The notes under the pieces were generated by a model. That model searched no databases, had not been told where the DNA came from, and saw only the letters and a program-made list of their open reading frames with translations. The position numbers were made by a program, and so were the translations under genes. 64,000 nt of DNA from a virus (Duplodnaviria; Heunggongvirae; Uroviricota; Caudoviricetes): IMG/VR virus record IMGVR_UViG_3300029705_000015, one strand, 5' to 3'. Positions 2,811-15,413 of the stretch are shown piece after piece. How positions within the stretch are numbered: the stretch's first letter is position 1; each line of letters begins with the position of its first letter.

Positions 2811-3647
2811 GTGATGCTCGACGATTACAAAGAAGCGTTTAGACAATGCGCCGATCTAATTGATGGTTGGCAAAATTTATCGAAGAATGAACTATGCATA
2901 AAATATGTTGAGAGTGAAGGTAATAAAAATCTTCAAGATTCATATTTTAGTGCTATAATGTATCGTTACTGGAATCTGATTGCAAAGTATCATTACATGA
3001 GTAGTAACGTTGCTTCACCAGAAGATTGTTATGAGTGGCTTGAAGATTCTGTTTACTGTTGTTTAACTTCAAAGAGCTGGGAAAAGAAAGATAGCTCGAT
3101 ATATCGTGATCCAAATGGCCCAGATAAGGTTATAAACCGATGTATGAAGTGTGCAAGATTAACATATTATCAGTTTATCAACAGAAAGAAACGAAAAGAT
3201 AATTTTGGACTGCTTAGTTTGGATGAGCTATCTGAGTTGTTCGGTACAACCATTAGTGAACCAGAAAGTTCAGAAAATTTAGATGAGGATATTGAGAAAT
3301 GGGCAATTGAGGATTACATAAAGTATCTTTTCACAAAGAAAGATTATTTCGCAGCTGTTGTGTTAGACGCTATTCAGACACAAGAAGTTTTTGATATTAA
3401 AACTTCAAAGGAACTTGGAAGTCAAGTAGTGTTTAGTTTAAGAAAACTAACAAGATTTATGTCAAATATTGAAGATGATTATGTTCAGTATTTTGCGGAT
3501 AAATATCATTTCTCATATGAAGAGGCTGAGTACGGAATGGAATATTTTCGTAAGTTGAAACAGCCAACAATCAAAGCAAAAATTCAAACTGTTCTGGAAA
3601 GATTACAGAACGATGCATTTATCAAATTACTTAAAGAGGGTCGCTGA
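2811..3647 (+). CDS. Putative sigma-factor-like transcription protein
   Basis: Region-2-like pattern (RYWNLIAK...EDCYEWL...RDPN...VINRCMKCARLTYYQFINRKKR...SLDEL); weak. Confidence 0.4.
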   Translation: MMLDDYKEAFRQCADLIDGWQNLSKNELCIKYVESEGNKNLQDSYFSAIMYRYWNLIAKYHYMSSNVASPEDCYEWLEDSVYCCLTSKSWEKKDSSIYRDPNGPDKVINRCMKCARLTYYQFINRKKRKDNFGLLSLDELSELFGTTISEPESSENLDEDIEKWAIEDYIKYLFTKKDYFAAVVLDAIQTQEVFDIKTSKELGSQVVFSLRKLTRFMSNIEDDYVQYFADKYHFSYEEAEYGMEYFRKLKQPTIKAKIQTVLERLQNDAFIKLLKEGR

Positions 3648-8372: not shown

Positions 8373-10862
8373 ATGGCAGATTCTCTATGGGGTGAAGAAT
8401 TTACTTTCACCCCTCCTCCAAAGCAACAGAAGAAAGTTATTGATAAAGTATCAAAACCTAAGAAGGTAACTACAACAACTGAGAGGGTTGTTAGATCCTC
8501 AAACAAAGTTACAACAGCTGAAAAACTTGCAATGATTGAGGCTGAAGTATACCGAATCTTGGGTGTTTACAAAGATCAAACTGTTGTTCTGAGGACTGAG
8601 GAGGAATTAGCTGAATATATTGATAAAGCAATTCTGAATTCAGTTATTGCAGTTGATACTGAAACAAATAATAGTCTTGTTCCTCTTACATGTAAGATAA
8701 TGGGACTCTGTTTGTATACCCCAGGAATGAAGAACGCTTATATTCCTGTTAATCATGAAAACATTCATACTGGTGAGTTGCTTCCGAATCAGGTTACTGA
8801 GGAGCAGATCCGAAGACAGCTTGAACGACTTACTGATGTTCAGATTATTATGCACAATGGTAAGTTCGACTTTGAGGTTATCAAGTGTACATGTGGTAAT
8901 GAACTTGAAATCTTCTGGGATACAATGATTGCTTCTCGTATTCTTGATGAAAATGAACGAGCAAACTTGAAGCAACAGTATATCAGTAAGATTGACCCTT
9001 CTATTGAGAAGTATTCTATTGAGAAACTTTTTGAAGGAATTGAGTATGCAAAAGTTTCTCCTGAACTTTTTGCATTATATGCAGCTACTGACGCTTTTAT
9101 GACTTATAAGTTGTATGAGTGGCAGAAATCTCAATTTGCTCAGCCAGGTTACGAACGAATGTACAATCTCTTTAAGAATATTGAGATGCCGATTGTTCGT
9201 GTTTGTGCAGATATGGAACTTGCAGGTATTGAGATTGATAAAGAATACGGTGAGCGGTTAAGTGCAAAGTATCACAAGAAACTTGATGCAATTGACAAAC
9301 AGATTGAAGAGACATTACATCAGTATGATCAGATAATTGCAGAATGGAGAAAGACTCCAGAGGCAAATCATAAGGAAAAGAAGCTTAACAAGAAGGGTGA
9401 AGAGACATGGACCAAGTCAAAGAACGAACAGCTCTCTGATCCAATGAGTGTTACAAGCCCGACACAGTTAGCTATATTCTTCTATGATGTTTTGAAGCAT
9501 CCTGTGGTTGATAAGAAGAGTCCTCGAGGAACTGGTGAAGACATCTTGTTGAAGATGGATTATCCCATTGTTAAACTAATCTTGGAAAAGCGTGGCTTAG
9601 AAAAGATAATTGGTACATATGTTGATAAACTTCCTCAATGTGTCATTCCGGAAACTGGTAGACTTCATGCACATTTTAATCAGATTGGTGCTGACACCGG
9701 TCGATTCAGTTCAAGTGATCCCAACTTGCAGAACATTCCTTCTCACTTGAAGGACATTCGTATGCTGTTTAGAGCGGGTGAGGGAAAAGTATTGGTCGGC
9801 AGCGACTTTTCCCAGCAGGAACCGAGATTGCTGTGTTCAATGGCAGGAGATCAAGCAATGATCACTGCTTACAGAAATAAACAAGACCTTTATGCAACAA
9901 TTGCTACAAAGGTGTACAACAACGGCTACTGGGATAACATGGAACACTACGAGGATGGTTCTCCAAATCCCGAAGGAAAGAAGCGTCGTTCAAATTGTAA
10001 GAGTATCCTGTTGGGACTGATGTATGGTCGTGGTGCCGCATCAATTGCTGAACAGATCAATCAGCCAATTCAAGAAGCTCAAAAGATTATTGATACTTTC
10101 TTCAAGGGGTATCCCGCAGTTAAGAAGTGGATTGATAAGACGCAAGCGGATGCAAAGATCAACGGCTATGTTGAAGATCATTGGGGTCGTAGACGTAGAC
10201 TTCCTGATATTTTACGACCTCCTGTGGAGGTTCGGTATTCAGACAAGGATAGAGTTGTTGTACCGTCTGATTTCAATCCGTTACTTGGATCAACTGGCAA
10301 ATATAGTGCAAGCACGCAATCAGATATTGACATCTATAAAGAGAAAGCTCTTGCTACTCGCGGTAGGAAAGAGATGGAAAAGTTAAAGTCTGAAGCTCTT
10401 GCAAAGGGCATCGAAATTCATGAAAACGGTGGATTCATAGCTCAAGCTGAAAGACAATGTGTCAATGCCCGTATTCAAGGTGGTGCTGCAACAATCACGA
10501 AAATTGCGATGAATAAAGTTCATTCCGATCCGGAATTGAGGCGTATGGGATTCAAAATGCTTATCTGTGTTCATGATGAATTGATTGGAGAGTGTCCTGA
10601 AGAATACGCAGAAGCTTGTGGTGAAAGATTGTCGCAAGTTATGATTGAATCTGTAGCTGAGGATGTAGCTTGCCCAATGAAGTGCGATGCCACTATAACT
10701 CGTTATTGGTATGAAGACGAAGTTGCTGCCAAACTGCAAGAGAAATTTGCTGATAAGATTGCACAAGGAGCAGATCCTGAATCAGTTAAACAGCAATTTC
10801 TGGCAGACAATGAAGAACTAACATATGAACAGCTTGAAGGGCTTCTTACAATGAAGTTGTGA
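8373..10862 (+). CDS. polA: Family A DNA polymerase with 3'-5' exonuclease
   Basis: AVDTET, HNGKFD, YAATD; PNLQNIP, SDFSQQEPR, KSILLGLMYG, NARIQG, VHDEL. Confidence 0.95.
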   Translation: MADSLWGEEFTFTPPPKQQKKVIDKVSKPKKVTTTTERVVRSSNKVTTAEKLAMIEAEVYRILGVYKDQTVVLRTEEELAEYIDKAILNSVIAVDTETNNSLVPLTCKIMGLCLYTPGMKNAYIPVNHENIHTGELLPNQVTEEQIRRQLERLTDVQIIMHNGKFDFEVIKCTCGNELEIFWDTMIASRILDENERANLKQQYISKIDPSIEKYSIEKLFEGIEYAKVSPELFALYAATDAFMTYKLYEWQKSQFAQPGYERMYNLFKNIEMPIVRVCADMELAGIEIDKEYGERLSAKYHKKLDAIDKQIEETLHQYDQIIAEWRKTPEANHKEKKLNKKGEETWTKSKNEQLSDPMSVTSPTQLAIFFYDVLKHPVVDKKSPRGTGEDILLKMDYPIVKLILEKRGLEKIIGTYVDKLPQCVIPETGRLHAHFNQIGADTGRFSSSDPNLQNIPSHLKDIRMLFRAGEGKVLVGSDFSQQEPRLLCSMAGDQAMITAYRNKQDLYATIATKVYNNGYWDNMEHYEDGSPNPEGKKRRSNCKSILLGLMYGRGAASIAEQINQPIQEAQKIIDTFFKGYPAVKKWIDKTQADAKINGYVEDHWGRRRRLPDILRPPVEVRYSDKDRVVVPSDFNPLLGSTGKYSASTQSDIDIYKEKALATRGRKEMEKLKSEALAKGIEIHENGGFIAQAERQCVNARIQGGAATITKIAMNKVHSDPELRRMGFKMLICVHDELIGECPEEYAEACGERLSQVMIESVAEDVACPMKCDATITRYWYEDEVAAKLQEKFADKIAQGADPESVKQQFLADNEELTYEQLEGLLTMKL

Positions 10863-10887
10863 TAACTGTTGTATAAATACTTATAAA

Positions 10888-10951
10888 TAAGGGCGGTGTT
10901 CGATCCTACAATCCCTCGCCCTTGATAAAAATATAAATTCAAACTAAGGAG
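10888..10951 (+). ncRNA. Candidate preQ1-I (type I-like) riboswitch
   Basis: Stem aagggcg/cgccctt enclosing G-UUCG...AUC-C, A-rich tail ending AAACUAAGGAG overlapping the SD of a yhhQ-type gene. Confidence 0.6.
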
Positions 10952-10958
10952 ATCAAAT

Positions 10959-11765
10959 ATGACTAGACTAAAGAATTGGATCAAGGATGAAGTAACTGAA
11001 TACAAAAGTTTGTTAAAGAATATTCCGGCGCTACTGCTTGCAGCTTTTTGTTTGGCTGTAGTGTTGATGAATACATTGGCAAACAAGACTATTGTGTCAA
11101 CAGATTGGATTGACATTGATGGAGGTATCCTCTGTGCATGGCTCATTTTTATGGCAATGGATCTAACGGCACAGCATTTCGGACCTCGAGCAGCAACAAA
11201 AATGTCTCTTGTAGGACTTGCTGTAAACCTACTGGTTTGCGGTATTTTTGGAGTTGCATCAATGATCAATATTGGTGGCGGAGCTTGGTCACCTGCATGG
11301 AATTATGCAACAGAAGAAGGATTTAACATTGCTAATGAAGCTGTTAATTCTCTGTTTGCTGGATCCTGGCAAGTTTTGTTGGCAAGTAGTGTTGCATTCA
11401 TTGTTTCTGCAGTTGCTAACAACACAATGAATTGGACCATCGGTAACTTGTTCAAGAACAAGAACACTCCAAGAGCTGAGTATGTAACAAGAGCTTACAT
11501 ATCAACAATGATTGGTCAGTTTGTTGATAATTGGATCTTTAACTTTTTACTATTCATTGTTCTTTTCCAAGATCCAACATGGACGCTGTTGAGTGTAACA
11601 ACTTGTGCAGCCCTGGGCGCACTTGTTGAATTATTCATGGAAATTGTTTTCAGTCCGTTTGGATATAGAGTGGTAACTCGTTGGAGAGCAGAAGCTGTTG
11701 GTCAAGAGTACATTGATACTTATGGTACTGGATTACTTAGATCCAATGTAAACGAGGTGAGATAA
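10959..11765 (+). CDS. yhhQ: VUT/YhhQ-family queuosine precursor (preQ0/preQ1) transporter
   Basis: Multi-TM; MNTLANK, DLTAQHFGPRAA, ISTMIGQFVDNWIF signature. Confidence 0.85.
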   Translation: MTRLKNWIKDEVTEYKSLLKNIPALLLAAFCLAVVLMNTLANKTIVSTDWIDIDGGILCAWLIFMAMDLTAQHFGPRAATKMSLVGLAVNLLVCGIFGVASMINIGGGAWSPAWNYATEEGFNIANEAVNSLFAGSWQVLLASSVAFIVSAVANNTMNWTIGNLFKNKNTPRAEYVTRAYISTMIGQFVDNWIFNFLLFIVLFQDPTWTLLSVTTCAALGALVELFMEIVFSPFGYRVVTRWRAEAVGQEYIDTYGTGLLRSNVNEVR

Positions 11766-12586: not shown

Positions 12587-13798
12587 TTGATGAGTTGTCA
12601 AGTCTACTACTATTCAGGAGCTTATGATCCACAGTTAAAGCGTGACCTGAATATTGATCAGTTGTTTTCTGTGTATCACGAAAAGAAACTGATCATGGAA
12701 ACTGTTACATACAAGAGAGAGCATCCTGAGTATACAGCTAGAATCATGTGTGACAGCGGTGCTTTTACACATTTCCAGCAAATGAAGAAAAAGGGATTGA
12801 CTCTAACTGATCAGGATATCATTGAGTACACTGATACTTATCTTGAGTTCCTCAATGAATGGGGAGATGGTCTTGATTGTTTTGTTGGTGTTGACTCTGT
12901 TCCTGATCCCGAAAATGTTGATCCTACATACGGTGATAAGACCTGGGAAAACTATCTTTATATGTGGGAAAGACTTAATCCTGAAATCCGGCATAAGTTG
13001 ATTCCTGTATTCCACTATGGTGAGGAATGGAAGCACCTTGAAAGATTCTTGGAATACGTTCATCCTGATGGTAGCAAGCTAGATTACATTGGTTTGGCTA
13101 TCTCCTTGGAAGGAACACGTAAAGTCAGAATTAACTGGGGTCAAGATGCAATGAAGATCATTGCAAACAGTAGTAATCCGAATGTTAAGACTCATGCATT
13201 CGGTGTCGGTGTTAAATCTGTTCTTGAACACATTGATGTTTATTCAACAGACGCAACATCTTATCTGAAAAGAGCTGCTTATGGAATGATCAGTATTGAT
13301 GACAAGACAATCTATGTTAGTGACATTCAAAAAGAAATGCTCAGAGGTAACCACTATTCAGAGAAGTCTGCTGCTTATCAGAAATCTGTTGAAGACATTA
13401 TTCATGAGCGTGGATTTACACTTGATCCTTATGAATTGAATTATGAATTCATGGATGCAGATACTGTTAAGTTCACTCTTGATGGTGAGGAGTATCATGT
13501 TCACAAGGATAATGATACAAGTGTTCTTTTGATTCATGGTGATGAAATTGACACCTTGAAGTTGAGCGCAGCTGAGGATGCTCCTGAAGGGGCAGATAAG
13601 TTTTTTGGAACCTGGGAAACAAAGAGGAAAACTTTGATTTTTGACGGCTTAGGAACTGTTCGATTTGATCCTGGTAATGCTCTGGCTACTAACTGTTATG
13701 CAAGAGCAGTTTTCAACATTCAGGATACCGAGAATTGGATGAGTAAGATTCGTGAAATGGCTCCTGCTGTAATTAAAACTAAAGTTGATCTTTGGTGA
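12587..13798 (+). CDS. dpdA: DpdA-like (TGT-fold) base-exchange transglycosylase
   Basis: CDSGAF, FVGVD, PVFHYGE, HAFGV, STDATS match TGT/DpdA catalytic Asp pattern; no bacterial TGT Zn site; linked to yhhQ. Confidence 0.75.
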   Translation: MMSCQVYYYSGAYDPQLKRDLNIDQLFSVYHEKKLIMETVTYKREHPEYTARIMCDSGAFTHFQQMKKKGLTLTDQDIIEYTDTYLEFLNEWGDGLDCFVGVDSVPDPENVDPTYGDKTWENYLYMWERLNPEIRHKLIPVFHYGEEWKHLERFLEYVHPDGSKLDYIGLAISLEGTRKVRINWGQDAMKIIANSSNPNVKTHAFGVGVKSVLEHIDVYSTDATSYLKRAAYGMISIDDKTIYVSDIQKEMLRGNHYSEKSAAYQKSVEDIIHERGFTLDPYELNYEFMDADTVKFTLDGEEYHVHKDNDTSVLLIHGDEIDTLKLSAAEDAPEGADKFFGTWETKRKTLIFDGLGTVRFDPGNALATNCYARAVFNIQDTENWMSKIREMAPAVIKTKVDLW

Positions 13799-14528: not shown

Positions 14529-15413
14529 ATGGCAAAGATTGTTGGTCTTATTCCTTGTCTCATGCTGGATAACAACAGAGATGCAAACAATGAAGCCATT
14601 GAGCACAACTATAAACATCTGAATCTGGATGCGATTGCAATTTATGATCAAGCCTTTCAAGAAACTGATTATGATGATCGGTTTATCTATGTTGGACATC
14701 AGCCTGATCGTGTTGGATTTACAAACGCTCGTAACGGTTTGTTGAAGTGGTTCTATGAATCAGATTACGATTACGCGTTGTGGTTAGATGCAAATGAGAA
14801 AGTTTCTACTCCAACTATCAATGATACTGTAACTATTGTTGAAGCTTTGAAGGCGGATAAACTGAATCATATTGATGTTATTTTTTCAACTCTCGGGTTG
14901 TGGGTATCTCAGGATAGAATTGTTGCAAAACAGCGTGAAGATTACATGACACATGTTCAATTGATTCCTGCTCTTAACAACAAGAGTTATAACTGGATGC
15001 ATGGACTAATCATGAAGAATTTTAGAAAGTACTATGATCAGCCTGTGTTCATTGATCAGCGATGTGATGTTAAACTTGGCACTCCTGAAGATGTTTATTT
15101 TGCAAGATTGATTCGTAGATACTACAATGCGTATGTTGCTCCAACAATTGTAATCACTAAGCCGAGCTCAAATACATCGACTCATGCAGGAGACGGTAAA
15201 GGAAGATATGTTTATCCTCCTGTTAAGTTTGATGAAGTAGATCAATACATTCTTGAGAATGTAGAAAAAGAAAACCTCAAGATGTGTAACGTTCACTGGT
15301 ATCAAGATTCAGTTAGCCTACCTCGGGTAGAATACATGAAGGAAAAAGTTGCTCCATATAAATCAAGAAAAAAGGAATCGGCTTCAGCTGTAGCTAAAGT
15401 TGATCTATTCTAA
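14529..15413 (+). CDS. GT2/GT-A-like glycosyltransferase
   Basis: GFTNARNGLL...DYALWLDANE resembles GT2 G..AARN...Y(I)LFLD(A)D; later EDVYF. Confidence 0.55.
   Translation: MAKIVGLIPCLMLDNNRDANNEAIEHNYKHLNLDAIAIYDQAFQETDYDDRFIYVGHQPDRVGFTNARNGLLKWFYESDYDYALWLDANEKVSTPTINDTVTIVEALKADKLNHIDVIFSTLGLWVSQDRIVAKQREDYMTHVQLIPALNNKSYNWMHGLIMKNFRKYYDQPVFIDQRCDVKLGTPEDVYFARLIRRYYNAYVAPTIVITKPSSNTSTHAGDGKGRYVYPPVKFDEVDQYILENVEKENLKMCNVHWYQDSVSLPRVEYMKEKVAPYKSRKKESASAVAKVDLF

Follow-up and report, generated by a model that had tools for sequence, protein, structure and literature searches.

Organization of the polA–yhhQ spacer

In the window, by which we refer to the whole 64-kb stretch of phage DNA analyzed, the spacer between the family A DNA polymerase gene polA (8373–10862; Pfam DNA_pol_A), which is intact and encodes 829 residues, and the transporter gene yhhQ forms a 5′ leader with a hairpin (P1), a 15-nt loop and an A-rich tail (L3). 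The features of the locus are as follows.

10867–10877, + strand: conserved TGTTGTATAAA, with a single exact copy in the 64-kb window and co-conserved with the leader
10889–10898, + strand: 5′ strand of P1, AAGGGCGGUG, from sequence and covariation; G10898 is the equivalent of the pocket-floor base G5
10899–10913, + strand: 15-nt loop UUCGAUCCUACAAUC, with contact-base roles taken from PMC8752633 and PMC11625349
10904–10907, + strand: pyrimidine tract UCCU, complementary to AGGA at 10947–10950 and a possible anti-Shine-Dalgarno (anti-SD) segment, namely the 5′ strand of P2
10914–10923, + strand: 3′ strand of P1, CCUCGCCCUU, from sequence and covariation; C10914 is the equivalent of the floor base C18
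10924–10943, + strand: A-rich L3 tail of 20 nt, the terminal AAA being equivalent to A28–A30
10944–10951, + strand: tail C (C31 equivalent), then UA and the SD AAGGAG, a type I "CUA" expression platform
10959–11765, + strand: yhhQ (Vut_1 family), a queuosine-precursor transporter and the proposed regulated gene (Pfam PF02592, 79.6 bits)
12587–13798, + strand: DpdA-like (TGT-family) protein (phrog_887 queuine tRNA-ribosyltransferase, E=9e-35)

The yhhQ product also matches TIGR00697 with 46.2 bits, slightly below the cutoff. The DpdA-like gene lies 800 bp downstream, and its product probably uses the 7-deazaguanine base that YhhQ imports; it belongs to the context of the leader and lies outside the RNA element itself. 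A scan of 47 ORFs found no preQ0-synthesis gene among them. The public sequencing DNA runs that carry the window sequence are animal faeces or gut metagenomes, and the single public RNA run contributes short contigs only, one of them within yhhQ (11509–11691) and none over the leader.

The coordinates and letters given for the leader in the preliminary description all proved correct when checked against the sequence. P1 comprises 10 bp, pairing 10889–10898 with 10914–10923. Its outer part reads u-aagggcg (10888–10895) opposite cgccctt-g (10917–10924), whereas its inner part consists of the wobble pair G10896·U10916, the U10897/C10915 mismatch and the closing pair G10898–C10914. Within the loop, U10899 and U10900 correspond to U6 and U7, U10912 to U16 and C10913 to the specificity base C17. 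The tail terminus AAACUAAGGAG lies at the ribosome-binding site of yhhQ: C10944 is followed by U10945–A10946, and the SD AAGGAG (10946–10951) lies 7 nt 5′ of the ATG at 10959. The isolated hairpin folds with −12.4 kcal/mol (z = −2.24 against shuffles), and the whole 113-nt leader has the same stability as its own shuffles (z = −0.07). A tRNA-like reading of GUUCGAUCC was discarded, as ARAGORN returned no match.

Upstream of the hairpin, nearly every phage relative has TGTTGTATAAA (conserved as TGTTGTATAWA) 8–20 nt before P1, regardless of which gene lies upstream. In L014 and L018 a consensus TTGATA-N17-TATAAT promoter immediately precedes this motif. It may mark the −10 or transcript-start region of the cassette, and might be a promoter element, the 5′ end of the transcript or part of the RNA; a canonical extended −10 element it does not fit. 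The TATAAA at 10882, earlier considered as a box that would set the transcription start inside P1, is not conserved, the relatives reading TATGAA, TGTAAA or TGTACA instead. Elsewhere, a phage promoter family (T)AGTTGAT-N17-TATAAT with a conserved TGTA(A/T)A about 6 nt later is present in at least 13 copies before plus-strand genes, located in the window at 15413, 20177, 37677, 41348, 43523, 46986, 49661, 51299, 56181, 57647, 59843, 62029 and 62119.

Conservation of the leader in phages and bacteria

Nucleotide search of a phage collection by blastn retrieved no relatives of the locus, nor did a protein search of IMG/VR, and a gapped DNA pattern against IMG/VR gave 111 chance matches of at most six stem pairs with no real copy among them. 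About 24 close homologues of the YhhQ protein, sharing 75–94% identity with it, are encoded on metagenomic contigs that reach 190 kb, at loci that keep both the replication-module synteny and the leader of the window. The element is kept 5′ of yhhQ (Vut_1) in about 20 related large-phage contigs. The stem, whose loss in relatives would have spoken against a functional RNA, is retained with compensatory changes: the AAGGGCG strand of the window becomes AGAGGCG, and other relatives carry AGGUGGAG/CUCCACCU, UGUGGUG/CAUCACA or GGAGGACG/CGUCCUCC. The loop ends stay constant as G-UU...A(U)C-C, and the tail is constant as AAAC followed by the SD.

Two relatives, L001 and L002, encode a second yhhQ copy with its own element, which has a stem of 6–7 bp and a loop differing by one base from that of the window. 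This second Vut_1 gene with its leader copy maps to 5432–6327 in L002 and 6682–6798 in L001; it has a promoter about 130 nt upstream, with an extra structured RNA in between in L001, and in L002 a nucleoside 2-deoxyribosyltransferase-family gene follows it. Downstream of the yhhQ gene, a homologue of ribosomal protein L9 (Pfam Ribosomal_L9_N and Ribosomal_L9_C) is encoded in L001 (4447–4893) and L002 (3976–4422). In L009 (1669–3801), a GIY-YIG-type endonuclease gene (2076–2933) severs the leader and the first 30 yhhQ codons (1740–1838) from the rest, and a complete yhhQ starts at 3001, with a divergent N-terminus and a hairpin foreign to the leader family; this arrangement looks like a homing-endonuclease invasion with partial duplication. 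In several relatives polA is called as two ORFs of about 540 and 333–382 residues (L001 151–2891, L013 60–2861, L009 1–1665), which points to an intron, an intein or an inserted endonuclease.

Across 71 distinct homologous leaders used for the structure tests, P1 is paired in 92% of the alignment cells, and eight of its ten pairs vary on both sides; controls in which the 3′ partner was slid by 1–3 columns reached 42–59%. The P1 core is recovered independently by RNAalifold from an unfitted MAFFT alignment. The conservation of the stem, together with its pairing well above the controls, indicates that the element is more than a chance hairpin. Around this helix, the stem sequence, the middle of the loop and the tail vary, and the conserved letters are concentrated at the positions equivalent to a ligand pocket. 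In the type I aptamer of Carnobacterium antarcticum, the floor is formed by G5–C18 with A28, the alpha site by U6, C17 and A30, and the beta site by U7, U16 and C31 (PMC8752633, PMC11625349). Among the 71 leaders, the equivalents of G5, U6, C17, C18, A28 and A29 are present in all 71, U7 in 70, A30 in 68, C31 in 67 and U16 in 66, such that the preQ1-contact positions of the type I aptamer are, at the level of sequence equivalence, invariant or nearly so across the family. Judged by the type I consensus taken from the same two papers (PMC11625349, PMC8752633), the window agrees: UU follows the 5′ strand of P1, UC precedes the 3′ strand, and a C interrupts the A-rich tail ahead of UA. The hallmarks first recognized in the leader, namely G-UUCG, UC-C and AAAC-UAAGG overlapping the SD, are accordingly all present.

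A covariance model built from 20 phage leaders with P1 as its only helix (R1) has a single match in the window, at 80 bits, and finds the element 5′ of yhhQ at about 60 bacterial or metagenomic loci. These include five of 80 yhhQ loci from bacterial genomes (Bacillales, Bacilli, Acholeplasmatales, Ruminococcus and Clostridia MAGs) and the majority of the loci retrieved from gut and rumen metagenomes; in a class-level sample, one of 151 genomes had a match, with only 32 candidates scored per genome. The cellular consensus is AGCGGAG, UUCGGCCUCUAAAUC and CUUCGCU, then 13 nt and C-CAAGGAG. Its loop has 15 nt as in the window, its P1 has 7 bp and its L3 13 nt, and, apart from a few divergent copies, the closing C and the tail C are always 20 nt apart. 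At the expression platform, the cellular copies read CCA in place of the type I CUA. The bacterial copies lie 5–40 nt downstream of TGnTATAAT promoters, a placement that fits an element of the 5′ untranslated region. In L238, L266, L268–L272 and L278, the TGnTATAAT promoter and the leader are separated by a G+C-rich hairpin, which lies about 40 nt ahead of the motif.

All 78 matches stand directly 5′ of a Vut_1/YhhQ gene, and in five whole carrier genomes the model matches exclusively yhhQ leaders, two of them in one genome; the proposal of a conserved, yhhQ-specific leader is thereby borne out. The preliminary description had also taken the elongated form for a phage variant. Its long P1 and L3 are confirmed, whereas a phage-specific origin is not, since the form with a 7-bp P1 and a 15-nt loop is common before bacterial yhhQ. 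Within our sample, the 7-bp/13-nt form is the cellular one, and the longer forms, with P1 of up to about 14 bp and tails of up to 31 nt, are confined to the phage lineage. No match to RF00522, the Rfam model of class I, was found in the five carrier genomes, and an Rfam scan of 20 bacterial yhhQ loci at gathering thresholds gave tmRNA, tRNA and ZTP matches only.

Proposed switch and competing explanations

The length of L3 rises with that of P1, with a Spearman rho of 0.87 over 15 lineages and 0.83 over the 12 phage lineages, based on hand-assigned lengths. By lineage, the P1 base pairs and L3 nucleotides are 7/13, 8/13–15, 10/17–20, 11/31 and 13–14/24–26. An automatic version of this correlation (rho −0.27) was set aside for the hand-assigned lineage values, as it is confounded by optional A-U pairs that consume the tail. 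The earlier expectation of a P1 and an L3 both longer than canonical, the latter in proportion to the former, thus agrees with these hand-assigned lengths, and the tracking of stem length by tail length fits the requirement of an H-type pseudoknot, which is indirect support for that fold.

The pairing of loop and SD fared differently. Every loop contains a pyrimidine tract complementary to the SD, and some lineages show apparently compensatory pairs (CCUUA:UAAGG versus UCUAA:UUAGG). The UCCU:AGGA complementarity pointed out beforehand does exist, yet it is no better than that of composition-matched shuffled loops (median fraction 0.2), and the loops and SDs of the same leader pair no better than mismatched foreign partners (p=0.22). 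A scan of loop/tail column pairs gave no informative covariation. P2 is therefore a putative helix.

The leader almost certainly derives from class I type I preQ1 riboswitches and is probably an elongated preQ1-I switch of the type I kind that turns translation off in response to its ligand. The 10-bp P1, topped by its G–C pair, would provide the floor of the pocket, and the loop, starting with UUC and ending with UC, would contribute its last C as the specificity base. The 20-nt A-rich tail would return along the minor groove of P1 to place A10943 and C10944 at the pocket, thereby bringing UAAGGAG, including the SD, onto the loop as a short P2. When a 7-deazaguanine precursor (preQ1, possibly preQ0) is plentiful, the pseudoknot would close, the SD of yhhQ would become less accessible and less importer would be made, which would amount to negative feedback on the base supply for a DpdA-type DNA modification. 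Which ligand is bound, and in which sense yhhQ would be regulated, we infer. Riboswitches of yhhQ and queT usually work in this way, the importer being throttled by the substrate it carries. As such a switch acts at the SD, on translation, it would be equally usable on a transcript starting nearby and on read-through from polA. Among the observations against the preQ1-I reading is the U·C mismatch one pair below the floor pair in the subclade of the window.

A more far-reaching proposal is that the family represents a distinct, uncatalogued preQ1-I subclass with a 15-nt loop, a P1 of 7–14 bp and an L3 of 13–31 nt, which in Bacillota of gut and rumen, and in relatives of these, serves yhhQ exclusively, and which a lineage of large gut phages captured together with yhhQ and stretched; a reshaped pocket ceiling may turn its ligand preference away from that of canonical preQ1-I, perhaps towards preQ0, queuine or a phage-specific 7-deazaguanine. 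In this full form we put it forward tentatively, as a possibility that we rather doubt.

Another explanation keeps the same fold and mechanism and assigns the pocket to another 7-deazapurine, such as preQ0, queuine or the precursor of a phage hypermodified base, with the 3-nt-longer loop reshaping the pocket ceiling. The middle of the loop is indeed unlike that of all canonical types, RF00522 misses the family, and the CUA of type I is replaced by CCA in the cellular copies. Moreover, the bacterial carriers have small genomes (1.1–2.7 Mb) devoid of a canonical preQ1-I match, which would fit salvagers of a base as opposed to makers of preQ1, and YhhQ-family transporters are reported to carry preQ0, preQ1 and, in some species, queuine. 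Nevertheless, every base that makes contacts at the alpha and beta sites of the type I pocket is kept, whereas ligand switches elsewhere usually show as changes of contact bases; a different ligand is therefore unlikely in our view.

Quite improbable, in turn, is a conserved structured leader that senses no metabolite, be it a 5′ hairpin that stabilizes or processes the yhhQ mRNA or a site for a regulatory protein. Such a leader would account for covariation that supports the hairpin only, for a loop–SD pairing no better than shuffled loops or foreign partners, and for a phage hairpin that is as long and stable (−12.4 kcal/mol) as protective 5′ stem-loops. It would leave unexplained why deep divergence has altered the stem sequence but left unpaired bases of the loop and tail invariant, why these bases coincide with the preQ1-I type I pocket, and why the element associates with one transporter family only. 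Nor does a simple hairpin with a spacer need the coupling between tail and stem lengths that is seen here.

The hairpin lies 26 nt past the stop codon of polA and its stem is rich in G+C, but the readings as an intrinsic polA terminator or as a chance product of an AT-rich spacer are extremely improbable. They are effectively refuted by conservation in unrelated upstream contexts, as the element is found after other genes, after promoters and in bacteria, in each case ahead of yhhQ. Its stem covaries, no U-run follows the stem and a terminator scan makes no call there, in accordance with the first assessment that it is not a terminator.

According to McCown et al. 2017 (PMC5473149), riboswitches are very rare in phages, and our literature search found no paper linking a preQ1 riboswitch to a phage yhhQ. 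If the leader is the proposed preQ1-I-type OFF switch, the phage appears to meter, by means of a riboswitch, the import of a base bound for its DNA via the DpdA-like enzyme. The comparison also brings to light a sizeable set of bacterial yhhQ leaders, from gut and rumen, that goes unannotated by the standard Rfam model. Among known aptamers and riboswitches, the class I preQ1 fold is the smallest, and it serves as a model for RNA folding and drug targeting. Our comparison of sequences suggests that this fold tolerates large changes in helix and loop length as long as the pocket bases are kept, and the natural P1/L3 series, from 7/13 to about 14/25, offers a ready-made test of how the lengths of tail and helix are coupled in H-type pseudoknots.

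Comparison with known preQ1-I riboswitches

At the gathering thresholds of Rfam 15, no family matches the window. An assignment by Infernal with the class I model RF00522, as suggested at the outset, did not succeed: the window copy is unmatched at the gathering score of 39 bits and also at E≤10 in a 221-nt slice. The miss is explained by a loop with 3 extra nucleotides and by the elongation of both P1 and tail. Of 20 motif-carrying loci, none reaches the gathering score of RF00522, and the cellular consensus form aligns by its tail only, with 10.9 bits. For the leader of the second yhhQ copy of the L001/L002 type, RF00522 is the top Rfam match over its full length, at a sub-threshold 20.4 bits (E=0.02), and the same holds for the leader of L011 at 16.3 bits, also below the threshold. 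The alignments of these relatives contain a 3-nt insert in the loop and a 7–8-nt insert in the tail. Furthermore, the stretch 10944–10951 of the window is identical to the RF00522 consensus AAAAAACUAAGgA, and the Rfam consensus ...G-GUUCG...UC-CC...AUAAAAAACUAAGgA agrees with the family at both loop ends and through the tail.

Compared to the type III preQ1-I riboswitch, represented by the E. coli yhhQ leader (PMC11625349), the element likewise precedes and would regulate yhhQ, shows UU directly following the 5′ strand of P1 and possesses a pyrimidine-rich loop, which in type III has been proposed to occlude the SD AAGG (PMC11625349). However, type III has AC before the 3′ strand, whereas the element has UC, the tail C, and a long P1 and L3. 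Of the three types, type III is also the one whose consensus is smallest and strictest, and it is found almost only in Pseudomonadota.

The closest resemblance is to the type I preQ1-I riboswitches (RF00522; C. antarcticum, PDB 7REX and 8FB3; PMC8752633, PMC10018353). They share a hairpin topped by a G–C floor pair, a loop that starts with UUCG and ends with UC, its C being the specificity base, and an A-rich tail that ends in AAAC, followed by UA and the SD (AAACUAAGGAG). Both lie directly 5′ of a queuosine-precursor gene with the SD beside or inside the aptamer, which implies a translational OFF switch. They differ greatly in dimensions. The loop of the window has 15 nt with an unrelated middle, compared to 12 nt in type I, such that the pocket ceiling and P2 cannot be mapped onto the canonical aptamer. 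P1 has 10 bp in the window and 7 bp in the cellular copies, compared to 5 bp in the canonical form, and L3 has 20 and 13 nt, respectively, compared to about 6–8 nt. The canonical preQ1-I model spans 45 positions, and both the window and the cellular copies exceed its compact size. In addition, the window copy is phage-borne and scores far under the gathering threshold. Altogether, as the element falls outside both the RF00522 threshold and the size definition, it is better regarded as a new structural variant of the preQ1-I fold than as a plain member of the class.
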